Positions 1-31,872 are shown, counted from the stretch's first letter. The stretch: DNA of 64,000 nucleotides from Patescibacteria group bacterium (GCA_028710985.1 JAQTTB010000001.1:359397-423396); one strand, 5' to 3'. Notes: a model not told the origin generated them from the sequence alone. Made by a program: numbers and translations.

Positions 1-778
1 GGTTGGCTCTATTCTTTGCCATGTCCGCTTCCACCTGGGGGCGGAGCTCGGCCACCTTTTCGGGCGGCAGAAGGGGCTCGCGCGGCGCGGCCTTGGGAGC
101 CTCGGGGGCGGGCATGGCCTCGGCCGGCGCGGCCTTGGGGGCCTTGGCAGCCTCCGCGTCGACTCGCGCCATCTCATCCTCGAACGATCCTCTCGAGATG
201 ACGCCGCCCTCGTAAAGGCCTCTGAGGACCGCCCTCTTCTCGTCCGGGGTGTTGGGGCACTTCTTGGTAGCGGGGGCTTCGGTCTTGGGAACCCTGCCCC
301 GGACTTCGGCCATGGTTACCAGGGCGTTGAACCCCAGCTTCACCGACTTGTCGCGGAGGGCTAGCAGCAGGTCGCGAAGCTCCATGGCCCGCTTGAGCAC
401 GTCGTCCGAGAGATAAAAAGTTATCTCCGGAGCGAGTGGCGTTCCGCTTTCATCGGGCGGGGCGTAGTGAGTCACTCTGGTTTCCTCGTCGGCTTCCTTG
501 TAGAGAACCTCGATCTTGCCGCCGTCCTTGGTGTTCACCGCGATCTTCTCCTTACCGCGGTAGGCGGCAAGGAGCAGGGCGAACGAGATGAATACCGAGC
601 GCGCCCGTATCTTCTCTCCCTCGGTCATGGGGTCCAGATTAACCTGGATCTGGAGCGCCTCGAGCACGGGCTCGAGGAGCGAGCGAAGCGCGAGCACGAC
701 CGTGTACCAGCAGCCGTCCGAAGCCTTGACCTCGCCGATCCTCATCTTTACTATGGTCCTTATGCTCTTTCCCTTCAT
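1..778 (-). CDS. hypothetical protein, C-terminus cut by the window edge (ATG at 778-776; at least 259 aa; Ala/Pro-rich distal part)
   Basis: Manual reverse-complement translation gives an uninterrupted frame from ATG 778 to position 1 (MKGKSIRTIVKMRIGEVKASDGCWYTVV...). A GGAGG/AAGGAG RBS lies 7-15 nt upstream. The ORF track lists only complete ORFs, so this one is missing from it. GC about 65%, against about 50-55% for the rest of the window. Confidence 0.5.
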   Translation of the reverse strand, partial: MKGKSIRTIVKMRIGEVKASDGCWYTVVLALRSLLEPVLEALQIQVNLDPMTEGEKIRARSVFISFALLLAAYRGKEKIAVNTKDGGKIEVLYKEADEETRVTHYAPPDESGTPLAPEITFYLSDDVLKRAMELRDLLLALRDKSVKLGFNALVTMAEVRGRVPKTEAPATKKCPNTPDEKRAVLRGLYEGGVISRGSFEDEMARVDAEAAKAPKAAPAEAMPAPEAPKAAPREPLLPPEKVAELRPQVEADMAKNRAN

Positions 779-943
779 GACTGAACTCCTTATTGCCTCC
801 CGCACTGCGGGGGGACTTGGCTTGGGTTTAAGGAACTAAGTTTCGCATCAGCCGCCAATTGTGATTCGCGGCTAGTGTGATGGCACGAAAGTTCGTGCCG
901 TGTGGTGTGAGAAAAGCGGATTGGAACTGTGAAAGGTGAGTGG

Positions 944-1333
944 CTACAGGATGCAGCCGTGCTTGCGAAGCAGTGCCTCGGCGGCGCGCTGGCGCTCCGA
1001 AGCGCGCTTCGCGGTCTCGATCGCGGCGAGGATCTCGGAGGCTGAACGGGCGCGGACCACAGCGATCGACGCCTTGGCGTAATCCGCCTTGGCCGCGGGA
1101 ATCTGCTCGAAGGTCCGGATGACCTCGGACGCTGCGCCCATCCGGCGGATGGCGGCGGAGACGGCCTGGGGTGTCGCGGCCTGGAGCAGGTCGCACTTGG
1201 CGGCGCGGCGGAGCACGATGCTCTGTCGGATGACCGCTACGCCCTCGCGGGTGATCGGCGTGCCGGCGGGCTCGGGCGCGGGGAGAACCGGAACGATCTG
1301 GATCAGACCGGGGGCCATGATGATGCTCGACAT
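944..1333 (-). CDS. hypothetical protein (129 aa)
   Basis: Complete ORF with an AGGAG RBS 8 nt upstream of the ATG. Same strand and same high GC as the 1-778 gene. No recognisable motif. Confidence 0.4.
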   Translation of the reverse strand: MSSIIMAPGLIQIVPVLPAPEPAGTPITREGVAVIRQSIVLRRAAKCDLLQAATPQAVSAAIRRMGAASEVIRTFEQIPAAKADYAKASIAVVRARSASEILAAIETAKRASERQRAAEALLRKHGCIL

Positions 1334-13279: not shown

Positions 13280-14269
13280 TTAAAATGCTGATCCAATAAT
13301 GCGATTAAGGATTTGCTTATATGATAATCCCTCATTGATTAACAGTCGTGGGAACATCGAAATGTCTGTAAAACCTGGAAGCGTGTTAATTTCATTTATA
13401 TAAACACGATTGTTATTTATAAAAAAATCGATTCGCGCAAAGCCGCGGCAGTCGCAAAGCCGATAAGCGCGTGAGGCGTAATTTAGAATTATGGAGGCTT
13501 GAGAGGTAGTCAATTTTGCTGGAATATTAATTTGCGTTTTATTGAGTTTATATTTGTCATCAAAATCGTAAAATTCATTTACCGGCACTATTTCGCCGGG
13601 TTTAGAAATCAGCGGGTCATGATTGCCTATAACCGCTACTTCAATTTCTTGCGGATTTTTAAGCCCCTGCTCAATCAATATTTTCTGATCATGCCGTCGG
13701 GCTTTGTTTATCGCCGCTGGCAGTTGAGAAAAACTATTAACTCTCGAAATTCCGATTGAAGATCCGGAGTTTGAAGGTTTTACAAAAATTGGCAAGTTAA
13801 AGGTTTTTTTAATTTTTTTTAATTTAATATCAATTTCTTTTTTTGAAAGAGTAGAATAATCAATTGATGCGAATCTGACTTGAGGGATACGATTATATTT
13901 AATAAAATTTTTAAAAAAAGATTTATCCATGCAAAGAGCCGAAGACAGAACGCGGCAGCCGCAATATTTGATGCCGCAATTTTCGAGCATGGCCTGCAAT
14001 ATCCCATCCTCGCCAAAACGGCCATGCGTTATGGGAAATGCAATATCAATAATTTTTTTAAAATCTTTTAATTCAATTTTTTTCAAACCAAGACGTGAAA
14101 GGTTATTGAAATTTTTTACAATATTGAATTCTCCATTTTTCCGCCAATACATTAACACCAGTGAGTATTTTTTAAAATCAAAGTTCTCGGCAATATTCTT
14201 CGCGGAAATTATGGATATATCCGATTCATTCCCCGGACCGCCAAGGATTAAACCTATTCTTTTTTTCAT
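13280..14269 (-). CDS. ddl: D-alanine--D-alanine ligase
   Basis: ATP-grasp Ddl layout: N-terminal GGxxxE..., a central ATP-grasp region and a C-terminal ...EINTLPGFT motif. GC is about 30%, far below its surroundings. Confidence 0.85.
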   Translation of the reverse strand: MKKRIGLILGGPGNESDISIISAKNIAENFDFKKYSLVLMYWRKNGEFNIVKNFNNLSRLGLKKIELKDFKKIIDIAFPITHGRFGEDGILQAMLENCGIKYCGCRVLSSALCMDKSFFKNFIKYNRIPQVRFASIDYSTLSKKEIDIKLKKIKKTFNLPIFVKPSNSGSSIGISRVNSFSQLPAAINKARRHDQKILIEQGLKNPQEIEVAVIGNHDPLISKPGEIVPVNEFYDFDDKYKLNKTQINIPAKLTTSQASIILNYASRAYRLCDCRGFARIDFFINNNRVYINEINTLPGFTDISMFPRLLINEGLSYKQILNRIIGSAF

Positions 14270-14395: not shown

Positions 14396-14509
14396 CCCGC
14401 CTGCCGTCGCCTTGGTCGGGGATGAGAGACTCGAACTCTCGACCTCCTGCTCCCAAAGCAGGCGCGCTACCAACTGCGCTAATCCCCGGCTCAGGCCATG
14501 GCGGGCAGG
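14396..14509 (-). mobile_element. 114-nt insertion splitting a tRNA-Pro in its anticodon loop; it carries a complete tRNA-Pro(TGG) and ends in CCCGCCTGCC...GGCGGGCAGG
   Basis: Boundaries defined by where the two tRNA halves stop pairing. Mobility is inferred. Confidence 0.45.
14413..14488 (-). tRNA. tRNA-Pro (anticodon TGG), CCA encoded
   Basis: CGGGGAT-TA-GCGC-AGTTGGTA-GCGC-G-CCTGC-TTTGGGA-GCAGG-AGGTC-GAGAG-TTCGAGT-CTCTC-ATCCCCG-A-CCA. C1:G72 and A73 are Pro identity elements. Confidence 0.9.
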
Positions 14510-14544
14510 CAAAGCATGCGCCTTAGCCGCTAGGCCACGCCCCG
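14510..14544 (-). pseudogene. 5' half of the split tRNA-Pro: CGGGGCG-TG-GCCT-AGCGGCTA-AGGC-G-CATGC-TTTG
   Basis: Acceptor, D-arm and anticodon-stem 5' strand. Complements 14355-14395. Confidence 0.75.
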
Positions 14545-14626
14545 GATAAATTTATTCTAATAATAGCAGAAATCACTAAATAAATCAAGATGCCCGGCTG
14601 GATTTTTTTGCTAAGATAAGCCATTT

Positions 14627-14662
14627 TAAAACCGTTCCGACAATTTGCCGGAACGGTTTTTT
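14627..14662. terminator. bidirectional rho-independent terminator downstream of tRNA-Phe
   Basis: aaaaccgttccg-acaatttgc-cggaacggtttttt: a 12-bp stem flanked by an A-run and a T-run. Confidence 0.65.
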
Positions 14663-14674
14663 GAAAATCCGTAA

Positions 14675-14746
14675 ATGCCTGGGGACAGAATTGAACTGTC
14701 GACACGTGGATTTTCAGTCCACTGCTCTACCACTGAGCTACCCAGG
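14675..14746 (-). tRNA. tRNA-Phe (anticodon GAA)
   Basis: GCCTGGG-TA-GCTC-AGTGGTA-GAGC-A-GTGGA-CTGAAAA-TCCAC-GTGTC-GACAG-TTCAATT-CTGTC-CCCAGGC-A. Confidence 0.9.
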
Positions 14747-14767
14747 CCCAGGGCTTTATAAAATTGA

Positions 14768-14844
14768 TGGTGGGCGCACGTGGACTCGAACCACGGACCT
14801 CGTCATTATCAGTGACGCGCTCTAACCAGCTGAGCTATGCGCCC
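14768..14844 (-). tRNA. tRNA-Ile (anticodon GAT), CCA encoded
   Basis: GGGCGCA-TA-GCTC-AGCTGGTTA-GAGC-G-CGTCA-CTGATAA-TGACG-AGGTC-CGTGG-TTCGAGT-CCACG-TGCGCCC-A-CCA. This is the classic tRNA that follows 16S in rrn operons. Confidence 0.9.
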
Positions 14845-15092
14845 AATATGTCATGGCTGATTCTTGCTTGTAAAAAGCGCCTCCCAAATCCGGTCTTAAA
14901 ATATTTTTCTCGCTTAAGGGCAAGTTCTTTGCTCAGGCAGGCTTCATAATATACCAGTTTCAATGGACGGCGTATTCGCGTTGAGTCCACTTTGCCCAAC
15001 GCATGCTCTTGGCAGCGTTTTTTTAAATCATCCGTAAAACCGATATAAAATTTCTTATCTTTTAAACTTAATAAAACGTAGGTAAAAAACAT
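14835..15092 (-). CDS. GIY-YIG nuclease family protein (85 aa)
   Basis: YVLLSLKDKKFYIGFTDDLKKRCQEH matches the GIY-YIG motif. Its 3' end overlaps the tRNA-Ile 5' end by about 10 nt. Confidence 0.7.
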   Translation of the reverse strand: MFFTYVLLSLKDKKFYIGFTDDLKKRCQEHALGKVDSTRIRRPLKLVYYEACLSKELALKREKYFKTGFGRRFLQARISHDILGA

Positions 15093-15107
15093 TATTCGCG
15101 AGTCCTC

Positions 15108-15488
15108 CTATGCACCCTTGGTTTCCAGGGTGACATTGATATTGGATGGATTGAATTTGTCCTGTATGTATTCTTTGATTTTATTCGGAGTATCCGAGCT
15201 GCCGCAGGTCAGAATGTCGATTGAGCAGTAGCCGTATTCTGGCCAGGTATAAATCGCGGCGTGGGATTCTTCCAGTATCGCGACTGCCGAGACCCCCTGG
15301 TGTTTAGTCAGCTCGCCGTTGAAAATTTTGTGATGGTAGTCAACAAAATTTACCAAATGTAAGCCGGCTTTGCTTATGGCAGATGTCAGAGTTTCTTTGA
15401 TTAGATTTCGGTCATTGAGCAATTGTTCGTTGACCCCATAGAACTCGGCGTAAAGATGATAGAGCCGAGGCGTATAGAGTTGTTCCAT
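15108..15488 (-). CDS. speH: S-adenosylmethionine decarboxylase proenzyme (class 1b, pyruvoyl)
   Basis: The self-cleavage motif ILEESHAAIYTWPEYGY is present. Size is about 126 aa. Confidence 0.85.
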   Translation of the reverse strand: MEQLYTPRLYHLYAEFYGVNEQLLNDRNLIKETLTSAISKAGLHLVNFVDYHHKIFNGELTKHQGVSAVAILEESHAAIYTWPEYGYCSIDILTCGSSDTPNKIKEYIQDKFNPSNINVTLETKGA

Positions 15489-15677
15489 TTCTTTATCCTC
15501 AATATTGGCGCGGCGGAAAGGCCCGTCAATATAAAAAAGACTATAAATTATGTAGCTACAGTATATTAATTTTCTGTAAGGATCGCAAGAGACTTTGTCC
15601 CTGTGGATACATAATTTAAAGCCTTCTCAACTTAGAAAGTGATAGGATTTCCTTCTTTGGGATATTTACTCCCTAGA

Positions 15678-17175
<1,498 letters not shown>

Positions 17176-17430
17176 TGTTGTTACTTTGAGCTTACGGGGA
17201 AATTCTCGTTGGGCTCAAAGTGATGATATTTTGTTGTGATGTGAATCTGCCGTCAGGCAGATTCGAGGAATCCTATCACTTTCTAAATTGGAAAAGAGCT
17301 AAACTTAGCTTTTTTTAATTGCTCCAATATGATATACCAAGCGCAATTGTATGTCAAGAGCTTAAAATGGTCAAGTCCAAGGCGTATTTTAGCCAAAAAA
17401 TGGTATGGGTCGCATATATGCGAGCCATGC

Positions 17431-17458
17431 AAAAAAAGTCCTCCGCGGGGCGGAGGAC
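17431..17458 (-). terminator. rho-independent terminator after the 17476-17955 gene (GTCCTCCGC-GGGG-CGGAGGAC plus a T-run in minus sense)
   Basis: Hairpin preceded by an A-run on the plus strand. Confidence 0.6.
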
Positions 17459-17475
17459 AGGGGGAGGGCGGAAGG

Positions 17476-17955
17476 TCAGATGAAGCGCGCTCCGAGTCCC
17501 GAGATGAGCCGAGTGCAGAACACCCTGAGTTCCGAGGGCGACTTGCGTTTCGCGCAGTCAATCTCGTAGGCTGAGAGGGCGCTGGCGTAGGCAGTTGGAC
17601 TGACGCGGTGGCTCGTGACGAGCTTCGCCGCCTGCGATGGCAGTCCGCCGTCAATCGCTGAAGCGATGGCGCGTTCGGCCCACTGATCCACGATCGATCC
17701 GAACTGCCAGCGATCGCCGAGCGCAACGAGGCGTCCCCAGTCTCCCGTTTTCTCGAGAACCCGGATATTCATTAGCAGAATATTGGTGAGTCCCAGAATA
17801 TTCCACCAGGTCATTTCATAGCGGTTGCGGTCGATGCCGAGGTGAAAGAGAAAGCGCTTGAACTCGAACCCGTTCGTCGGATGGCGCGTCCGCCACTTGA
17901 TCGCCTCTTGCTTGAAACCCTCGGTGTTTATTTCGCCTGTGAATTCTTCGCTCAT
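17476..17955 (-). CDS. hypothetical protein (159 aa); first gene of the GC-rich island
   Basis: GGAGGAGTG-ATG RBS and a terminator downstream. GC about 62%. Confidence 0.5.
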   Translation of the reverse strand: MSEEFTGEINTEGFKQEAIKWRTRHPTNGFEFKRFLFHLGIDRNRYEMTWWNILGLTNILLMNIRVLEKTGDWGRLVALGDRWQFGSIVDQWAERAIASAIDGGLPSQAAKLVTSHRVSPTAYASALSAYEIDCAKRKSPSELRVFCTRLISGLGARFI

Positions 17956-18135
17956 CACTCCTCCTTGCGAAATGTTTCCCCCCGAAAAGAACCAAGATGC
18001 CGAATAGTATAATATAATATTTTATTATTGTCAATGGAAAAATAAAACAGCCGCATTTGGCTGTTTTTCCGCATGAGCCGTGAATCATCTGTACCATCGG
18101 AATTACTTGTTCATCCAATACCGATAATTATTAAT

Positions 18136-18178
18136 TCGCGTCTCATGTGGAGGCACGATCAAGCGATCATGCCAGTGG
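18136..18178 (-). repeat. island-specific intergenic element, copy 1 (hairpin plus TCCACATGAGACGC); copy 2 is at 19021-19063
   Basis: gcgtctcatgtggaggca(c/t)ga...tcatgccagt is conserved between two intergenic spacers of the island. Confidence 0.55.
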
Positions 18179-18212
18179 GAAGGAGCTTGGGGTTGAGGTG
18201 GCGGGGAATGTC

Positions 18213-18686
18213 CTAGATATCGGAGACATCGACGAGCATGTCTTCGGACATGTCTTTGATGTGCATCTCTTTTTGCCAGTCCCTGTATGTGTCCTCCAGA
18301 ATGGACGTGTCACGGCCAGCAGAACGCAGGTACTCTTCGTATGCCAGGCACTCTTCGATCTTGTCCTTGTCCTCGTGGGGCTCCATGCTCTCGCACCACT
18401 CGTAGAAATCCTCATCCCCCTCGTCGCTCATCTGTTCCAGGGCCACGCGGCCAGTCATCTTGAGTTCCACGCGCGCGGACTGACGGTCGGCGCGGAAGTA
18501 GCGGTTTCGAATCGCGTGTAACTTTTTCCGCCCGGCGTTGCTCTTCTCTTCAGTGAAGAGATAGTTTCTCCGCTTCCACTCAGCGAAGAGATGGTCTATC
18601 TGCTTCCGCCGATTGCTGAGACGGTGTGGGCATCTTCTGACTTCGATATCCATGTTGTCCTCCTCGATACTTGCATTGGAGCGCAA
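18213..18686 (-). CDS. hypothetical acidic protein (about 146-157 aa)
   Basis: ORF only. Codon usage matches the island. Confidence 0.4.
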   Translation of the reverse strand: MRSNASIEEDNMDIEVRRCPHRLSNRRKQIDHLFAEWKRRNYLFTEEKSNAGRKKLHAIRNRYFRADRQSARVELKMTGRVALEQMSDEGDEDFYEWCESMEPHEDKDKIEECLAYEEYLRSAGRDTSILEDTYRDWQKEMHIKDMSEDMLVDVSDI

Positions 18687-18737
18687 TCAAGCAATCCTAG
18701 CACGAATTGCCAAATTGCACAAGGGCGCCGGGTTCGG

Positions 18738-18974
18738 TCAGGCTTCGGGCCTTGGCCGGCTCGCCAGGGCGATGCCGATGGAAATCGGCCAGAGCAGGGT
18801 GAACAGCATGGCCGCGCCCAGGCTCTTGAAGAACAGGTTGTCCTTCTTCGGCCGGTTCGGGAGATCGCGCAGCCGGATGCCGCCGACCTTGAGCTCCAGG
18901 CCGATGATGACCATGGCGCCGATCGTGTACCAGACCGAAAAGATCAGGATGGCAACGTAGATTACGAGCTCCAT
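18738..18974 (-). CDS. small membrane protein (78 aa, 2 predicted TM helices)
   Basis: AAGGAGG RBS 5 nt upstream and two hydrophobic segments. Confidence 0.45.
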   Translation of the reverse strand: MELVIYVAILIFSVWYTIGAMVIIGLELKVGGIRLRDLPNRPKKDNLFFKSLGAAMLFTLLWPISIGIALASRPRPEA

Positions 18975-19020
18975 GAAATCCTCCTTGTTATTATGTCCGC
19001 ATCAGCCGCCGATTTGCATC

Positions 19021-19063
19021 AGCGTCTCATGTGGAGGCATGACGTAAGAATGTCATGCCAGTT
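19021..19063 (-). repeat. island-specific intergenic element, copy 2
   Basis: See 18136-18178. Confidence 0.55.
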
Positions 19064-19087
19064 AGGTGGGTAGGAAAGAGCGGATTG

Positions 19088-21055
19088 TCAGAACGACAGG
19101 ATGCCCGTGGAGGTTCTCGTGACGCCGGTGAATGTCCAGCCGGAGTCATAGAGGTTGATCCACGCGCGATGCCGCGGTGTGCCGCGTGTGCCAATGGCGA
19201 AGACCAGGAACTCGTCATTCCAGTCCGGAATCCGGATGAAGTATGACGAGCTGTCGTTCGCATAGCTCGTGCACACTGGGAACGCGGGGTCGGTGTGGTA
19301 GGTGTCCGGATCCCAGACCTGGTCGTCCCAGTCTTCGGACCCGTAGGTCACGCAGAGCGCGCCGATTTCCTCTGTCCCTTCCAGGGCAAAGGGGTTGTCG
19401 CTGAACGCGGCCGCGTGATGAGCCTCGAGCGTGCCGCGGATCTCAATCTCGCGGTAGCCCGACATGGTCCGGCCGGTGATGCTGTACGTGCCCGAGGTCG
19501 TTGAGCTTGAACAGCCCTCGTCCACGGTACCGTCGCAGTCATCATCTGCCGAGTTGCAGGACTCGCCCGGCGGAACGCAGGTCCCCCAGCTGCACGAAGT
19601 ATCGCAGGTCTGGGTGCCGGTCGTTGAGCACGAACTCGTGCAGGTGCGGGTTGAGTAGCGGACGCAGGTGAACGTCTCGTCCGTGAGCCCGTCGGAATCG
19701 TTGTCGCTGCCGTCGCAGATTTCGGTTCCGGATATTGGAGGCGTTGCACCTCCGCAGGAGCCGAGTCCCCACGCCGTAAGCGCGGTGTTTGACGCGGTGC
19801 GGCAGAGATCGCCGGCGAGCACGAGCTGTGTCACATCCATCTTGAGGATTGCTCCCCAGGAGGTGATGACCGCGGGTTTCACCTGCGTGAACCCGCAGAG
19901 CGTGAAGCCCATGGGCTCGCCGTCGCCCGGGTAGTCGAGCGAGAAGCACGCGCTGTCCAGGCAGCCCGTTGTGGCGTCATGGTAGGCCGTGACCCGGTCG
20001 ATGTACTCGCCCGGATTCAAGGGCCGCACCAGCCCGTAGCCGTCGCGCGAGTCCAAGTAGAACGTGCCGGAGAAGTTGACGCATGACCCGATTGCGACCC
20101 CGGAGAGCCGGCTTATCTGGTCCGGCGTGGCCGGCGGCTCCCAGAACGTATCGCAGTCCGGGTCGTCGTCGTCCGTCACTCCGTCGTGATCGTTATCCGC
20201 ACCGTCGGTGCAGACATCCATCTCCGGGAGGGCCGGGCAGCGCAGTGCGAGCCGGGTCGTGCCGCCATCCGAGGCGGCCGCACGGTAGCAGGGCTCCGTG
20301 CTCACGAAGTCGAACTTGGAAAGATCGAGCTCGTACGTCGCCGAACCGAGCTGGAAGAACCAGCCCGTGTCGCCGCCCCGGGTGTACCAGAGGCTGCCCG
20401 GTGTGGCCGTTTCCGACCACGTCTTGCAGATCCGACCGGTCGTGGTTGACCAGCTGTTCCAGCTGCCGAAGGCGCAGAGCGCGCTCGGCCGGCCGGGGAG
20501 TGTGGCGAACGTTCCGGAGAGCATGTCTCCGTAGATTCGCGACTCCACCGCGTCGCCGGGGTTTGAAACCCAGTCGCGGAACTCGGCATAGATCGTGCCG
20601 ATTGGGGCAGGCGGGCCGGGGATTTCCCCGCCATGCGGGGAATCATCGGTCGCGGTGTCCACGGCCGTGTCCGGAGTTGTGTCCGGAACCGTGTCCGTGG
20701 TCGTATCGGTTGCCGTGTCAGTCGCCGTGTCGCAGGTCGTATCCGGCTCGGTGGCCGCATCGTCGGTCCCTGTGTCGGTCGTCGTGTCCGCGGCCGTGTC
20801 AGAATCAGTTGCCGCGTCCGTACCGCCGATGCAGTCCTCCTCGTCCACGAACCCGTCGATGTCGTCGTCCCAGCCGTTGCCGCAGATCTCGGGGGCGGGT
20901 GCGTCGGAATCGGTTCCGGCATCGCAGATCTCGTCCACGAGTCCGTTGCCGTCGTTGTCCACGCCGTCGCAGATCTCCGGGGGCCAGCCCATTGGCTCGT
21001 TGGTGCAGCCAGTGAGCATCCAGATCGTCGCGATCGTCCAAAGCGTCTTCTTCAT
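19088..21055 (-). CDS. secreted lipoprotein (lipobox LTGC) with repeated CxDGxDNDxDGxxDE metal-binding-type motifs and Thr/Asp-rich low-complexity segments
   Basis: Signal peptide MKKTLWTIATIWMLTGC and multiple EICDGVDNDGNGLVDE-type repeats (MopE-like putative metal-binding motif). The family assignment comes from motif recognition only. Confidence 0.7.
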   Translation of the reverse strand: MKKTLWTIATIWMLTGCTNEPMGWPPEICDGVDNDGNGLVDEICDAGTDSDAPAPEICGNGWDDDIDGFVDEEDCIGGTDAATDSDTAADTTTDTGTDDAATEPDTTCDTATDTATDTTTDTVPDTTPDTAVDTATDDSPHGGEIPGPPAPIGTIYAEFRDWVSNPGDAVESRIYGDMLSGTFATLPGRPSALCAFGSWNSWSTTTGRICKTWSETATPGSLWYTRGGDTGWFFQLGSATYELDLSKFDFVSTEPCYRAAASDGGTTRLALRCPALPEMDVCTDGADNDHDGVTDDDDPDCDTFWEPPATPDQISRLSGVAIGSCVNFSGTFYLDSRDGYGLVRPLNPGEYIDRVTAYHDATTGCLDSACFSLDYPGDGEPMGFTLCGFTQVKPAVITSWGAILKMDVTQLVLAGDLCRTASNTALTAWGLGSCGGATPPISGTEICDGSDNDSDGLTDETFTCVRYSTRTCTSSCSTTGTQTCDTSCSWGTCVPPGESCNSADDDCDGTVDEGCSSSTTSGTYSITGRTMSGYREIEIRGTLEAHHAAAFSDNPFALEGTEEIGALCVTYGSEDWDDQVWDPDTYHTDPAFPVCTSYANDSSSYFIRIPDWNDEFLVFAIGTRGTPRHRAWINLYDSGWTFTGVTRTSTGILSF

Positions 21056-21091
21056 GATCTTCTTTCTCCTATGTTGCTATCTTGCTGTTTC

Positions 21092-21195
21092 AATGTACTC
21101 TTCATGAACCCACCATCCCAATGATGGCGGACTCATGTGAGTGCGCGACTGATTCAGGGGATGAATCATTATGTCGCGCAAGTTGGTGTGAAAGA
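21092..21195 (-). promoter_or_regulatory. 104-nt conserved leader, copy B (upstream of the lipoprotein gene); contains a GCGCGAC...GTCGCGC hairpin and a short uORF whose stop overlaps the main ATG
   Basis: About 98% identical to 22342-22445. Each copy sits directly 5' of a minus-strand Cys-rich gene. Confidence 0.6.
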
Positions 21196-21200
21196 GCAAT

Positions 21201-22304
21201 CTATTTATTCTGTGCTGCCTTTTTCTTAGCACGGCGTTCACGCGCGTAGCAGGTGCCGCAGACAGGTCCTTGGTCATTCCGTATTTTCACCGGCCTTACC
21301 TTGTGGCAGCAAATGCATTCTTCCTCAGACCGCTTGTAGCAGTTTACGCAGACAGGTCCTTGGTCAGTCCGCTGATTAACCGGCCTTACCTTGTGGCAGC
21401 AAATGCATTCTTCCTCAGGCCGCTTGTAGCAGTTTACGCAGACAGGTCCTTGGTCAGTCCGCTGATTCACCGGCCTTACCTTGTGGCAGCAAATGCATTC
21501 TTCCTCAGGTGGTTGGTAGGCCTTATAATAGCAACTTGCGCATATGGGGCCGTCATCAGTACGTTTATGAACAGGCTGCTCTTTATGGCAACGAACGCAT
21601 TCTTCTTCAGGCGCTCGGTAGCATCTATCACAGACAGGGCCGTCATCTAAGCGCTTCCTAACTGTTCTTACCCGATGGCAGAGTATGCACTTTTCTTTAG
21701 GGCGTAGGTGAGTCTTTCTGTAGCAGGCATCACAGATTGGACCCTCGTCCGTGCGCTGAACCACGGGCCTTACCCTATGGCAACAAATGCATTCTTCTTC
21801 CGGGCATTTATAGCAACAGTCACAGATTGGACCCTCGTCCGTGCGCTGAACCACGGGCCTTACCCTATGGCAACAAATGCATTCTTCTTCCGGGCGTTGG
21901 TAGGTTTTATTGTAGCAGCTTGCGCAAATGGGGCCATCGCTCGTGCGCTGCAAAACCGGCCTTACACTGTGACAGCGAACGCATTCTTCAAGGGCCGTAT
22001 GGTAACACTTGCCGCAGACTAGGCCGCCGTCCATGCGTTGAAAATTAATTTCGCTCCTTTCGTTGCAGACGCAGCAAATATCAATTTTCCTGTGGGACTC
22101 CAGGCCGGCGCATTGCCGACAGACGAGCGCGCCGGTTTGATTGAAATATTTTAGCGCTCGCAGATTATTGCAGTCCGGACATTTGCTCCGGGGCTTTGGC
22201 TGGCCTTGGCCCTCGCGTCGTGTTGGCTCGTGCATGCGCACGCAGTCTTCGTCTCCACAAACCGGGCAAATATGCCCGTGCGTTTCAGTGTGATTCTCGC
22301 ACAC
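21201..22304 (-). CDS. tandem zinc-ribbon-like repeat protein (367 aa; about 10 repeats of C-x-C-C-H-x10-GP-x-C-x2-C-Y)
   Basis: The protein repeats EEECICCHKVRPVNQRTDQGPVCVNCYKRP. The underlying 99-bp DNA repeats at 21289-21486 are near-identical. Probable GTG start. Confidence 0.65.
   Translation of the reverse strand: MCENHTETHGHICPVCGDEDCVRMHEPTRREGQGQPKPRSKCPDCNNLRALKYFNQTGALVCRQCAGLESHRKIDICCVCNERSEINFQRMDGGLVCGKCYHTALEECVRCHSVRPVLQRTSDGPICASCYNKTYQRPEEECICCHRVRPVVQRTDEGPICDCCYKCPEEECICCHRVRPVVQRTDEGPICDACYRKTHLRPKEKCILCHRVRTVRKRLDDGPVCDRCYRAPEEECVRCHKEQPVHKRTDDGPICASCYYKAYQPPEEECICCHKVRPVNQRTDQGPVCVNCYKRPEEECICCHKVRPVNQRTDQGPVCVNCYKRSEEECICCHKVRPVKIRNDQGPVCGTCYARERRAKKKAAQNK
21289..21486 (-). 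repeat. two near-identical 99-bp tandem repeats (plus diverged copies up to about 22000) inside the Zn-ribbon repeat gene
   Basis: ccggccttaccttgtggcagcaaatgcattcttcctcag... repeated with 1-2 mismatches. Confidence 0.85.
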
Positions 22305-22341
22305 GGCATACCTACCTTTCTGTGGTTAGATTTTGTTGTCG

Positions 22342-22445
22342 AATGTACTCTTCATGAACCCACCATCCCAATGATGGCGGACTCGTGTGAGTGCGCGACT
22401 GATTCAGGGGATGAATCATTATGTCGCGCAAGTTGGTGTGAAAGA
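22342..22445 (-). promoter_or_regulatory. 104-nt conserved leader, copy A (upstream of the Zn-ribbon repeat gene)
   Basis: See 21092-21195. Confidence 0.6.
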
Positions 22446-22446
22446 A

Positions 22447-22797
22447 CTAGTCGTCTCCGCGGCGGAGACGGTCGTAGCGAATCCGGTTGTATGCCCACTG
22501 GACGTGCCGCTCGTCGTAGCTCTCGCCCGGGTTGGGCAATGGCCGACCGCCGGGGAAAAGGCCGGTCTCGGGGTCGAACTTCTTCGGCCTGGGAAGCTTG
22601 GGCCGGCGGGACTGTTTTACAATCCGGTTGTAGGCCATGACCGGCAATACGGCCGGGGCGAGGAACACGAGGAATATCCGGTCGAGGATGTCGGTCGTCT
22701 CGCGTCCCATGCAGAACGCGCCGATGGTCCAGCAGATGATGTTCCATGGTGGGGTGACGAGGGCGGCGATGGTGAGAATTCTATAGAAAGCGCGCAT
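22447..22797 (-). CDS. small membrane protein (116 aa)
   Basis: Two hydrophobic helices at the N-terminus. Last gene of the GC-rich island. Confidence 0.45.
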   Translation of the reverse strand: MRAFYRILTIAALVTPPWNIICWTIGAFCMGRETTDILDRIFLVFLAPAVLPVMAYNRIVKQSRRPKLPRPKKFDPETGLFPGGRPLPNPGESYDERHVQWAYNRIRYDRLRRGDD

Positions 22798-23195
22798 GCT
22801 CTTCCTTTCCTAGAGGCAATGCCTCCCTCTTTGGCAAATGGCTTGTAAAGAACGACTCTGGGAGAGAGTATTTTTTATTGCCATCGGCCAAAGGGGGAGA
22901 CCCGCCTCAAACAAAAAGGCGAAGTCAGCTTGGGAAGAGTATTTCCAGTCTAACTTCGCCCATATAGCCAAATCCGGCTATATTTTGCGATTATTTATGA
23001 TATTTCTCTCTCCCCGATATTTGATTGTTAACGGGGTATAATATCATATTTTTGCGATTTTGTCAAGAGTGGCCGCCGGCCGAGCCGGCGGCAATTTTAA
23101 GTTGTAAATTTTAAATTTTAACTCAAATCCCAATTTTAAATGATAAATTACTTAATGTCGGGTCGCTTCGCCATTAAAGCATTCAAAATTTTTCA

Positions 23196-23240
23196 TTTAA
23201 AATTGAATTAAAATTTAAAACTTAAAATTTAAAATTAAAA
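23196..23240. repeat. AT-rich 41-bp unit tttaaaattgaattaaaatt|taaaacttaaaatttaaaatt: the 'empty site' version of 36106-36170
   Basis: The same unit at 36106-36170 carries the 20-nt palindrome exactly at the marked junction. Confidence 0.8.
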
Positions 23241-23894
23241 TCACGCTGATTTTTCCCGCCATTTCTTGATTTTTGCGTGATCGCCGGAAAGCAGGATTTT
23301 GGGCACTTTTTTGCCCTTATAATTTTCCGGCCGGGTATATTGGGGAAACTCTTTATATCCTTTCTTGGAATAGGTTTCTCCTTCAAGCGATATCTCGCAT
23401 CCGATTGTCCCGGGAATGTGCCGGCCGACCGCATCGGCAATAATCATGGCAGCCAGCTCTCCGCCGGTAATAATATATTCGCCGACGCTAAGCTCTTCAT
23501 CCGCCACGAGTTCGCTGACCCGTTCATCGACCGATGAATAACGCCCGCACAAAAATATCAGCTGATCATAATTTATGAGCCGCGGCACATCTTTTTGCGA
23601 AAAAATATTACCCCGGGGAGAGAGCAATATTACGCGGGTTTTTTTACCGCGTTTTTTTACTGCTTTAACCGCCCGGTCAAACGGTTCAACCATCATTACC
23701 ATGCCGGCGCCGCCGCCGTAAGGCTGATCGTCAACCGACCGGTGCCTGTCACTGGTCCATTTTCTAAGATTGTGCACCTTGATTGTAATCAATTTATTCT
23801 TAACCGCCTTGCCCAAAACACCAACCTCGAAATAAGGCTCAAACACTTCGGGAAAAATCGATATAAAATCAAATTGTATTGTTTTTTTCTTCAT
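23241..23894 (-). CDS. trmD: tRNA (guanine37-N1)-methyltransferase
   Basis: SPOUT fold motifs (...GGGAGMVMM...LLCGRYSSVDERV...). It lies in an rpsP-KH-trmD operon. Confidence 0.9.
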   Translation of the reverse strand: MKKKTIQFDFISIFPEVFEPYFEVGVLGKAVKNKLITIKVHNLRKWTSDRHRSVDDQPYGGGAGMVMMVEPFDRAVKAVKKRGKKTRVILLSPRGNIFSQKDVPRLINYDQLIFLCGRYSSVDERVSELVADEELSVGEYIITGGELAAMIIADAVGRHIPGTIGCEISLEGETYSKKGYKEFPQYTRPENYKGKKVPKILLSGDHAKIKKWREKSA

Positions 23895-31179: not shown

Positions 31180-31872
31180 TTATTCAAAAAATTCTTTTAT
31201 CTCCCCTCCGAGTGTAATAATCAGTGAAAGCAATAATTTTACCGAAAATACTTTTCTATCAAACGAAGACATCACAGACATTATAACTGGATCGGTTGGA
31301 TTAACTAAGTAATTAACATCTGTACAGCCAACACCAATGCCACGAATGACATCGTCATTTTCTTTCCAAAGCTTATTAAAATTTTTTAGGGTTGCCCGAA
31401 CATGAAAACTCCTAACTTTAATACTTGACAAAGAAGTATTCCTCATGTATTCACTATTCTCCGCCCATTCGTAAAAACTATTGATTTCAAAATGTTCCGG
31501 TTCCAGACTTACCGCAGCGATGCCGGCACCTAAAGGGTCATCGGGAGGCTCGGAATAAACCCGGATGCTTTCTTTATGTCTGTAGTCATGTTCCCGATCA
31601 GGAATAATGAATTCATAATCCTTGGTCATTGACACGAATCGTTCAACTGGCATATCGTCCTTAAGAAAGATATGCCCATTTTCAACTAAATCTGGGTTAC
31701 TCCCGGATATTCTTTCAAGGTTGGCTCGCATCAAGGCGATGTTTTCCTCAGTTGTGTTTTTATTATGGGGCCACGGGCAGGTTTGGTTATTCGGGTATTT
31801 CAATGACGCCAATATGCCTAAAATCACTATGAGCAAAACAAATGGCATTATAATCATTAACGGCTTTTTCAT
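31180..31872 (-). CDS. hypothetical membrane-anchored protein (230 aa)
   Basis: N-terminal TM helix MIIMPFVLLIVILGILASL. Confidence 0.5.
   Translation of the reverse strand: MKKPLMIIMPFVLLIVILGILASLKYPNNQTCPWPHNKNTTEENIALMRANLERISGSNPDLVENGHIFLKDDMPVERFVSMTKDYEFIIPDREHDYRHKESIRVYSEPPDDPLGAGIAAVSLEPEHFEINSFYEWAENSEYMRNTSLSSIKVRSFHVRATLKNFNKLWKENDDVIRGIGVGCTDVNYLVNPTDPVIMSVMSSFDRKVFSVKLLLSLIITLGGEIKEFFE

Follow-up and report, generated by a model that had tools for sequence, protein, structure and literature searches.

Organization of the operon between trmD and the 16S rRNA gene

The DNA analysed here, referred to as the window, is a stretch of 64,000 nt from a metagenome-assembled genome (MAG) of a Patescibacteria bacterium (candidate phyla radiation, CPR). 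It derives from a 744,538-bp contig, carries locus tags of the series PHW53_018xx and has an overall GC content of 50.7%. Between trmD and the 16S rRNA gene, the window contains an island of minus-strand genes encoding, in the direction of transcription, products of 116, 367, 655, 78, 157 and 160 aa, together with copies of an RNA module made of two hairpins that lie in the spacers between the cistrons (Table 1). Six minus-strand genes had been announced at this place by an original prediction made from the sequence alone, and the open reading frame (ORF) calls and the positions of the rRNA gene and trmD bore this out. Four of the six protein sequences match exactly NCBI-annotated proteins of the MAG, and the 160-aa product corresponds to a fifth that differs in its start. 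Related contigs from other, independent assemblies were used for comparison and are designated by L numbers (e.g. L001); the designation L023 stands for the extension beside the start of the window.

Table 1. Features of the island, its boundaries and the mini-island at the start of the window.
Feature	Position	Strand	Remarks
323-aa gene	2-778 within window	-	runs off window edge; GC3 0.81
Second GC3-rich mini-island	2-1333	-	129-aa gene and first 259 codons of the 323-aa gene
Divergent module copy	837-909	-	between 129-aa and 323-aa genes; CM R1 15.8 bits, E 6.5e-4, filters off
129-aa gene	944-1333	-	GC3 0.88
16S rRNA gene	15677-17174	-	Rfam RF00177, 1456 bits; downstream boundary of island
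16S promoters	17329-17374	-	two overlapping sigma-70-like sites, then boxA-like AGCTCTTTTCCAATTTAG in leader
Intrinsic-terminator-like hairpin and T7	17438-17458	-	closes island; consensus scan, sequence
160-aa gene (family F05)	17476-17958	-	ORF; NCBI PHW53_01795, 159 aa, start one codon later
Promoter-like TTGACA-17-TATACT	18006-18034	-	upstream of 160-aa gene; 11/12 consensus matches
Terminator-like hairpin and U-tract	18044-18067	-	after 157-aa gene; consensus scan
Probable divergent module variant	18098-18183	-	extended second hairpin; CM R1 14 bits, E ~0.1
157-aa gene (family F04)	18213-18686	-	ORF
78-aa gene	18738-18974	-	ORF; NCBI MDD4995180.1
Module copy C	18989-19069	-	CM R1 41.9 bits, E ~1e-9; after lipoprotein gene; outside training set
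655-aa lipoprotein gene	19088-21055	-	ORF; core gene of island
Module copy B	21092-21190	-	CM R1 69.7 bits; 99% identical to copy A
367-aa zinc-ribbon-type gene	21201-22304	-	ORF
Module copy A	22342-22440	-	CM R1 69.6 bits, E ~1e-17; core of 104-nt repeat 22342-22445 (repeat D4)
116-aa gene	22447-22797	-	ORF; NCBI MDD4995183.1
Promoter-proximal 120-nt unit	22912-23031	-	GGGGAGAGAG box, small hairpin, long conserved hairpin and U-tract
Sigma-70-type promoter TTGACA-17-TATTAT, extended -10 TG	23038-23066	-	11/12 consensus matches; strong
AT-rich inverted-repeat tract	23093-23240	.	GC ~0.32; between trmD stop codon and island promoter; inverted repeats I1-I4
trmD	23241-23894	-	ORF, NCBI name TrmD; upstream housekeeping boundary of island

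A two-hairpin RNA module between the cistrons

The island had been predicted to possess repeats of its own, a 104-nt leader and a 40-nt hairpin element, and both were recovered. The two copies of the longer one (21092-21195 and 22342-22445) share 99% identity, and chance would be expected to give 0 such matches; the shorter pair, at 19022-19042 and 18138-18158, is 95% identical over 21 nt, and both of its copies lie after a hairpin. The leader and the hairpin element are members of one family of structured intercistronic modules. When all island spacers of the window and of five relatives were folded, a single oriented architecture recurred, in which a C-rich box (approximately CCACCTnCTYG) is followed by GC-rich hairpin 1, a UCCCC linker, hairpin 2 and AAGGGAAC, and then by an A-rich stretch, a Shine-Dalgarno (SD) sequence and the start codon of the next gene. 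Hairpin 1 is variable in sequence between copies. Hairpin 2 has a CAUGAA...UUCGUG core, which recurs across genomes, and a covarying outer stem, with two of its 12 pairs invariant. In the window, copy A begins 6 nt beyond the stop codon of the 116-aa gene, and copy B folds into two hairpins with a free energy of -51 kcal/mol (z = -5.07). The element at 18098-18183 is probably a variant of the module, and 52 nt of it are 90% identical (blastn) to the L001 spacer at 14040-14091.

A covariance model (CM), R1, was built from an 18-sequence alignment and used to scan 162 kb. At a cutoff of E<=1e-6, it detected 51 module copies, many of them outside the training set and all of them on the coding strand. 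RNAalifold analysis of the 18-sequence, MAFFT-based alignment revealed compensatory changes at 11 of 17 pairs. In the 51-copy alignment, 91.8% of the cells were standard-paired, compared to 73.5% after shuffling and 28-42% in slid registers, and double-sided changes numbered 158 against 48 in shuffles; these figures are somewhat inflated because that alignment was fitted to the model, an effect from which the 11/17 result is free. About 11% of the cells hold G.U, a pair that would turn into a mismatch on the opposite strand, and the structure of the module is therefore strand-specific. Its position is constrained as well, with median distances of 13 nt from the preceding stop codon to the start of a copy and of 42 nt from its end to the following ORF, and nearly all genes of the operon have a copy behind them. 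Moreover, in different genomes a given sequence class of hairpin 1 accompanies the same family of upstream genes.

Neither hairpin has the form of a Rho-independent terminator: hairpin 1 runs into UCCCC, with no U-run, and hairpin 2 into AAGGGAAC. Translational coupling through pairing of the C-rich box with the downstream SD sequence was also considered and rejected; the probability of pairing between the SD sequence and the first 30 nt was 0.33, against 0.32 after shuffling of these 30 nt, and the pairing is composition-driven. Copies consisting of hairpin 2 alone follow AT-rich, promoter-like tracts (L006 at 4262 and 4386, L004 at 12953, L001 at 9874), which fits hairpin 2 as an element of the 5' leader. 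In L006 (4096-4506), and also in L010, three tandem copies of hairpin 2, each after an AT-rich tract of TTGA repeats, lie in the spacer past the lipoprotein gene, where the leader half of the module has thus been amplified locally.

No module was found by CM R1 in the housekeeping flanks of L001, L004, L016, L018 and L020, and nothing convincing in the window outside its two GC-rich patches. Searches against Rfam 15 gave no match at the gathering threshold except the rRNA and tRNAs, with only noise at E<=10 in the region 17200-23300. Nothing relevant was found in the literature on Patescibacteria with MopE or on intergenic hairpins, repeats or GC-rich regions of CPR bacteria. That the two-hairpin module is a previously uncatalogued structured RNA element, without an Rfam entry, is well supported.

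Conservation of the operon among Patescibacteria

A first search with the lipoprotein returned seven full-length homologs, and scans of the loci brought the number of related sequence types to twelve. The full-length homologs share 42-55% identity with the query over about 90% of its length and belong to Patescibacteria or to unlabelled metagenomic contigs, all taxonomically labelled ones being Patescibacteria. A scan of species-representative genomes added one further carrier, again a Patescibacteria MAG, and a metagenome scan added ten more lipoprotein loci. The Myxococcota-type matches were limited to short motifs covering 8-25% of the query.

Wherever its flanks can be seen, the operon occupies this slot: it comes immediately after S16-KH-trmD in eight contigs, from four distinct lineages (L001, L002, L018, L004, L006, L010, L016 and L020), and is immediately followed by the 16S rRNA gene in seven, which represent five lineages (L001, L018, L004, L006, L010, L013 and L014). 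The 16S rRNA genes of the relatives are 85-91% identical to that of the window, and the carriers are therefore distant relatives. Identity to the window ranges from 66 to 84% for TrmD (84%, 72% and 66-67%), from 65 to 75% for SMC and from 41 to 54% for the lipoprotein, which is therefore a fast-evolving protein. The spacer between trmD and the island in the window is homologous to that of the relatives, where it is contiguous with trmD. Families F00, F02, F04, F05, F07, F08 and F09 are common to the islands and their order is largely conserved (trmD, a small membrane ORF, the lipoprotein gene, F08, F07, F04, F02, F05, 16S), the window having a reduced version with the zinc-ribbon gene in addition. 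Families F72/F09 and the zinc-ribbon gene are found before or after the lipoprotein gene, depending on the relative. The lipoprotein gene also exceeds its own flanks in GC content in the relatives (0.63 vs 0.46 in L001; 0.60 vs 0.47 in L004).

All the island proteins are ORFans, and no mobility gene (integrase, transposase) was detected among them in the Pfam, NCBIfam and PHROG searches. The island is flanked by trmD and the 16S rRNA gene, with no tRNA or attachment site at its borders. PHROGs gave two weak matches to proteins of unknown function, PADLOC gave none, and viral contigs contained neither relatives of an island protein nor module signatures. An origin from a phage or a defence island was rejected on these grounds. 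A recently acquired genomic island was likewise rejected, as four to five other lineages carry the operon at the orthologous position.

Base composition and codon usage

A GC content of 62-66% had been assigned to the region 17290-22830. This value holds for about 19000-21000 and for the patches at 17400-17700 and 22500-22800, and does not hold for the remainder. The lipoprotein gene, which occupies the first of these stretches, has a GC content of 0.65 and a GC content at third codon positions (GC3) of 0.83; the zinc-ribbon gene is at background composition (GC 0.53, GC3 0.56), and the internal spacers of the island have a GC content of 0.46. The region is therefore no homogeneous 5.5-kb GC island. 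A GC-rich segment at 1-1450, also proposed, was confirmed (0.62-0.70). Composition is heterogeneous throughout the window, where per-gene values span 0.33 to 0.70. The heterogeneity goes in both directions, with low-GC genes (0.33-0.39) at 2175-2486, 13280-14269 and 31180-31872.

The GC content expected from the amino acid sequence was calculated with the codon table of 19 housekeeping genes of the window. For the lipoprotein gene, the observed value was 0.652, against 0.592 expected from the amino acids and a background of 0.518. The protein is rich in Thr (14%), Asp (12%), Gly (10%) and Cys (4.6%) and poor in Lys (0.9%), and about 55% of the GC excess of its gene is due to this composition, the other 45% to a synonymous shift to G/C-ending codons. 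The difference between observed and expected GC (+0.060) compares to a standard deviation of 0.014 and a maximum of +0.027 among the housekeeping genes; amino acid composition alone was thus rejected as the source of the GC-richness, as it leaves a synonymous residual about 4 standard deviations beyond those genes. A shift of the same sign was observed in the lipoprotein genes of L001 (+0.084) and L004 (+0.031). The 116-, 78-, 157- and 160-aa genes deviate as does the lipoprotein gene (+0.04 to +0.10), so that five of the six island genes show the compositional deviation by which genomic islands are recognized. GC3 reaches 0.83 in the 116-aa gene, where 0.65 was expected, and 0.91 in the 78-aa gene. 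The zinc-ribbon gene shows the opposite shift (-0.034; GC3 0.56 vs 0.63 expected).

Regional mutation bias and biased gene conversion were rejected as causes: the spacers of the island are not GC-rich (0.40-0.50) and the effect is restricted to coding sequences, which disfavours both. Selection for translational efficiency is not obviously supported as the source of the GC3 shift, the GC3 of rpoB/C and S16 being 0.55-0.59.

Proteins encoded by the island

The 655-aa protein had been described as a lipoprotein with MopE-like repeats, and the searches agreed. It contains 30 Cys and five CxDGxDNDxDGxxDE-type motifs (regular expression), matches Pfam PF11617 (Cu-binding_MopE) over two stretches (31.3 bits, E 2.4e-7; cutoff 27), and is named 'MopE-related protein' by NCBI. 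Bacterial lipoproteins were recognized by a signal peptide ending in the lipobox [LVI][ASTVI][GAS]C; the N-terminus, MKKTLWTIATIWMLTGC, carries the lipobox LTGC, and Cys17 is invariant in all eight family members compared, which also share a conserved Cys framework. The protein is thus most likely an exported protein, shown on the cell surface and with its lipid anchor at Cys17, as we infer from these sequence features. Its score against NCBIfam NF033662 (acidic double-disulfide repeat protein; 25.6 bits) was under the curated cutoff of 41, and a profile of the family had no match at E<=0.1 among all PDB sequences, MopE included. The structure model was poor (pLDDT 50) and unusable for fold searches.

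In MopE, the Cu(I) site consists of His132, His203 and kynurenine-130, and calcium has a stabilising effect on the protein (PMC3423442). The PF11617 motif is therefore not the copper site of MopE. What the lipoprotein has in common with MopE of Methylococcus capsulatus and other PF11617 proteins is the short Asp/Cys-rich motif CxDxDxDGxxDxxD and a secreted or surface location (PMC3423442). It differs from MopE in that its bulk consists of family-specific, Cys-rich, beta-type regions and in that the Cu(I) site of MopE lies elsewhere. Membership in the MopE/CorA copper-binding proteins was rejected, given the lack of a PDB match and motif-family matches covering 8-25% of the query. The Asp-rich MopE/thrombospondin-type motifs are more likely to be Ca2+ structural repeats than copper sites. 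Metal binding by the island proteins is unproven.

The 367-aa protein was expected to consist of about ten zinc-ribbon-like repeats, and ten CxxC-x15-17-CxxC units with 52 Cys were indeed counted. No family match was obtained in Pfam, NCBIfam or PDB; the units most likely hold structural zinc. Homologs with 56-65% identity were found at differing island positions in L009 and L015 (BLASTP, tblastn), and the gene is a variable accessory gene of the island. It is bracketed by modules on both sides in the window, and in L009 it is tandemly duplicated with its flanking modules. The gene contains tandem repeats of 90 nt (30 codons) at 21246-21509 and 21730-21895, with 93% and 100% identity, respectively, which points to a very recent expansion of the units or to gene conversion. 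More distant homologs (30-37% identity) occur in mobile-looking contexts, in L021 with genes for SSB, Replic_Relax and HTH proteins and in L022 with N6_N4 methyltransferase, HTH_26 and DUF4326, and one further homolog comes from Amycolatopsis.

We read the 78-aa and 116-aa products as putative membrane proteins because of their hydrophobic segments. The 78-aa protein has two such segments and is an orphan, with no similarity to the 78-aa family of the relatives. Homologs of the 116-aa protein were found in the islands of L001, L008, L016 and L014, and its family includes a72 and d71. The 157-aa protein is soluble, with a basic N-terminus and an acidic C-terminus, and had no significant match in Pfam or PDB; its family, F04, is a conserved core partner present in five loci. 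Family F05, to which the 160-aa protein, likewise small and soluble, belongs, is also present in five loci, always as the last gene before 16S. An AlphaFold model (pLDDT 80.5) shows an all-helical repeat of eight helices, and the fold search gave nothing significant (best E 0.74, TM 0.41, generic TPR/PPR-like). A PUF RNA-binding identity was rejected for this protein, as the per-repeat i-Evalues were 16 or worse and the Pfam PUF model was silent; the PUF match is an artefact because it was summed from individually insignificant repeats.

Promoters, leader and terminators

The promoter upstream of the island is conserved. Among five aligned control regions, those of the window, L001, L004 and L006 contain the sequence CTTGACAAAAnCGCAAAAATrTGnTATTAT, and the fifth, from L016, begins as fetched downstream of the -35 box. 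Next to it lies a promoter-proximal unit of 120-156 nt, present in all five genomes of the alignment (window, L001, L016, L004 and L006). Its long hairpin (GGGYGAAGUUAG...CUGACUUCRCC) is followed by U5-7, and the folds gave a terminal hairpin with a U-tract in 5/5 genomes. The unit at 22912-23031 had no Rfam match; it may encode a small RNA or else serve the island as an attenuating leader. A 5' GGGGAGAG box is complementary to CUCUUCCC in the terminator hairpin, so that an antiterminator alternative is possible.

Hairpins with the U-tract of intrinsic terminators were found in this leader (about 22912-22960), at 18044-18067 and at 17438-17458. The 16S leader contains, at about 17278-17299 (minus strand), a small hairpin and then AGCTCTTTTCCAATTTAG, which we take to resemble the rrn boxA on the basis of the E. 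coli consensus. The sequence G[CT]TCTTT is found on the sense strand at five intergenic sites of the island (22853, 22447, 21197, 19081 and 17992), each just upstream of a gene. A boxA/nut-like element was rejected as a feature of the module family, the YTCTTT core being present in 11/48 copies only.

A second GC-rich mini-island

The GC-rich segment at the start of the window is a second, smaller locus of GC3-rich genes (Table 1). Beyond the window edge (L023 2473-4543), it continues with a 96-aa gene (GC3 0.73), after which comes ftsK at normal composition. A stronger copy of the module than that at 837-909 lies just outside the window (L023 4031-4124, 36.5 bits), and the interior of its hairpin 1 is identical to that of the 104-nt repeat. 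The proteins of the mini-island had no homologs in the other loci. The genome thus has two separate places at which the module is found together with GC3-rich ORFan genes.

Possible function of the module and origin of the island

Taken together, the synteny of the operon, its partitioned composition and the module family, with its covariation and its strand and position bias, lead us to hold with moderate confidence that a single Patescibacteria clade has inherited the region vertically as a lineage-specific accessory operon, fixed between trmD and the 16S rRNA gene and with cistrons parted by RNA processing or stabilising hairpins. Cleavage and stabilisation are inferred by analogy with selective RNA processing and stabilisation (SRPS). 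The promoter at 23066-23038, strong and conserved, would give rise to a polycistronic RNA that would be cut in or near the UCCCC linker. The upstream cistron would then be protected at its 3' end by hairpin 1, and the downstream one would have hairpin 2 as its 5' cap or leader. In this way the module hairpins could set differing mRNA lifetimes and protein ratios, as in SRPS. There, strong intergenic stem-loops, such as those of the Clostridium cellulolyticum cip-cel operon, have been proposed to set cistron stoichiometry (PMC4423207; PMC8219983; 10.1101/2021.06.12.447814), 28 of 33 stem-loops lack a U-run (PMC4423207), and the stem-loops stay with the upstream gene as operons evolve (10.1101/2021.06.12.447814). 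The module shares with this system a stem-loop directly 3' of the cistron, the absence of a U-run, an operon for extracellular or surface proteins and a hairpin 1 kept with its upstream gene; hairpin 1 begins at a median distance of 13 nt from the stop codon, is followed by UCCCC and has a stem supported by covariation. SRPS stem-loops, in contrast, form no homologous sequence family, whereas here a whole module of about 90 nt is conserved at 85-91% 16S identity. The module is, moreover, confined to a small gene class.

The repetitive extragenic palindromes and bacterial interspersed mosaic elements (REP/BIME) of enterobacteria number in the hundreds, are spread over the whole genome in either orientation, and can stabilise the upstream mRNA. 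The module resembles them as a repeated, imperfectly palindromic intergenic element. It differs in being strictly sense-oriented, in having two distinct hairpins and in being seen only in two small GC3-rich loci.

Several observations weigh against a vertically inherited operon with processing hairpins. Such an operon does not account for the persistent synonymous GC3 shift, absent from the spacers, and the zinc-ribbon genes, though flanked by modules, are shifted in the other direction. Same-sample contigs from short reads (Logan) break at both edges of the island, and no independent assembly confirmed the contig of the window across both of them. The conserved apical stem and loop of hairpin 2 exceed what simple exonuclease protection would need, which suggests that a specific factor recognises it. 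The partly shuffled gene order and the presence of modules around duplicated genes also fit recombination at the modules at the DNA level. Finally, with a lipoprotein model of pLDDT 50, the putative surface-adhesin and Ca2+ roles are drawn from sequence features.

As to the origin of the island, the original prediction had suggested horizontal acquisition or a chimeric contig, and in its favour the island resembles horizontally acquired genomic islands in its local GC and codon deviation and in its ORFan content. MopE-type motifs are commonest in Myxococcota-like proteins, and the breaks of the same-sample contigs at both edges could be taken to mark a GC-rich foreign fragment joined to a CPR backbone. 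Nevertheless, such a recent transfer or chimera is extremely improbable. The same slot is occupied, and GC-rich, in four to five lineages assembled independently from different samples, which disfavours a chimera, and the presence of the operon at an orthologous site in distant relatives, the lack of mobility genes and spacers that are not GC-rich set it apart from genomic islands. The spacer after trmD is homologous to that of the relatives, full-length homologs are confined to Patescibacteria or unlabelled contigs, and the breaks coincide with ordinary obstacles to assembly, namely a repeat (the 104-nt one), an rRNA gene (16S) and the palindrome in the AT-rich tract. An older event, in which the ancestor of the clade would have acquired a GC-richer plasmid, phage or integrative element and domesticated it with its modules and codon style, is unlikely though conceivable. 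It would account for a distinct codon style occurring together with private RNA signals at two separate loci of the genome, for ORFans as the only products, and for the mobile-looking surroundings (SSB, Replic_Relax, methyltransferase, HTH) of the distant zinc-ribbon homologs. However, at 85-91% 16S identity and about 50% lipoprotein identity, synonymous sites should long ago have drifted toward host composition unless the bias was actively maintained, and the island has no integrase, replication or structural phage genes, only two weak PHROG matches and no match in viral contigs.

Other roles can be considered for the modules themselves. If they were sites for a specific RNA-binding regulator or nuclease, the island would be part of a post-transcriptional regulon, with F05 or the zinc-ribbon protein as a candidate regulator and with the modules serving as translational operators or specific signals for processing instead of generic stabilisers. 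The conservation of hairpin 2 in sequence as well as in structure, the confinement of the module to a small gene class and the weak, non-significant resemblance of the helical-repeat F05 to PUF and PPR repeats agree with this; the PUF match, however, is a sum of insignificant repeats on which Pfam is silent, the fold search gave at best E 0.74 with TM 0.41, and most module-bearing islands lack the zinc-ribbon gene, so that a regulon of this kind is doubtful. The modules might instead be DNA recombination sites, the island being a shufflable cassette array, integron-like and without a recognisable integrase. In integrons, attC is a single imperfect hairpin with core sites R'' (RYYYAAC) and R' (GTTRRRY), and an integrase is nearby. 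As in integron cassettes, a structured repeat follows each short, promoterless and often ORFan gene, with some shuffling and duplication. The relatives differ in order, F72/F09 and the zinc-ribbon gene being on either side of the lipoprotein gene; the zinc-ribbon gene stands between 99%-identical modules and has a tandem duplicate with modules in L009, and an identical hairpin-1 interior occurs in the second locus about 20 kb away. Against recombination sites, no tyrosine or serine recombinase was found in or beside any locus, there are two separate hairpins rather than one long bulged hairpin, and R''/R' cores were not found by inspection. The gene order is mostly conserved and largely orthologous across genomes, with hairpin-1 classes staying with orthologous genes as under vertical descent, and the duplications can be explained by passive homologous recombination between repeats; a cassette array is thus quite improbable. 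A wider proposal, also decidedly unlikely, is that modules and GC3-rich ORFan genes form a semi-autonomous class, either exchanged, duplicated and reordered by recombination at the modules without a recognisable integrase or united as the regulon of a hairpin-2 factor. If true, such a class would have its own RNA grammar and codon style and a few fixed hotspots, one of them directly upstream of 16S. The partial shuffling of genes may reflect either passive recombination between repeats or a more organised process. Very unlikely, lastly, is a function of the modules as nut-like antitermination sites, for read-through of the long structured spacers toward the adjacent rRNA operon or in concert with it. 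G[CT]TCTTT, five times intergenic in the island, resembles the boxA-like AGCTCTTTTCCAA of the 16S leader, and the island is co-oriented with 16S and directly upstream of it. A boxA-like GYTCTTT beside the hairpins of the window copies, two hairpins and a neighbouring rRNA operon are also reminiscent of the rrn and lambda nut sites and of HK022 put RNA, whose shape the two-hairpin module recalls. Unlike such sites, the boxA-like YTCTTT core is present in only 11/48 module copies, and the island is separated from 16S by a terminator and by distinct promoters.

Intercistronic hairpins with stabilising or processing roles are known as a kind; what is new here is a homologous module family tied to a CPR operon. 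As an accessory operon inherited within the clade, the region would be a cautionary case for calls of horizontal gene transfer or chimerism, in which a strong GC anomaly in a CPR MAG belongs to an ancient, syntenic and native locus, and in which about half of the anomaly is the amino acid composition of a Thr/Asp/Gly/Cys-rich, probably secreted protein. The covarying element, with 51 copies, appears to punctuate a surface-lipoprotein operon in episymbiotic-type bacteria whose gene regulation is little known. It can be searched for by model and could offer a handle on post-transcriptional control in CPR bacteria. A further result is the codon bias, a persistent GC3 shift that is confined to coding sequences and accompanies the module at both loci.

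Neighbouring features

The AT-rich tract that separates the stop codon of trmD from the promoter of the island (23093-23240) is a long imperfect palindrome with 68-nt arms that are 74% complementary, and it also holds 7- and 14-nt tandem repeats of the TTAAAAT type. Downstream of 16S (14413-15677), there is no 23S gene within the window, and the rRNA genes are thus apparently unlinked or interrupted. The 16S gene is followed by a 126-aa ORF (15108-15488), an 85-aa ORF (14835-15092) and then the genes for tRNA-Ile, tRNA-Phe and tRNA-Pro. The 126-aa ORF is also conserved at that place in L013.

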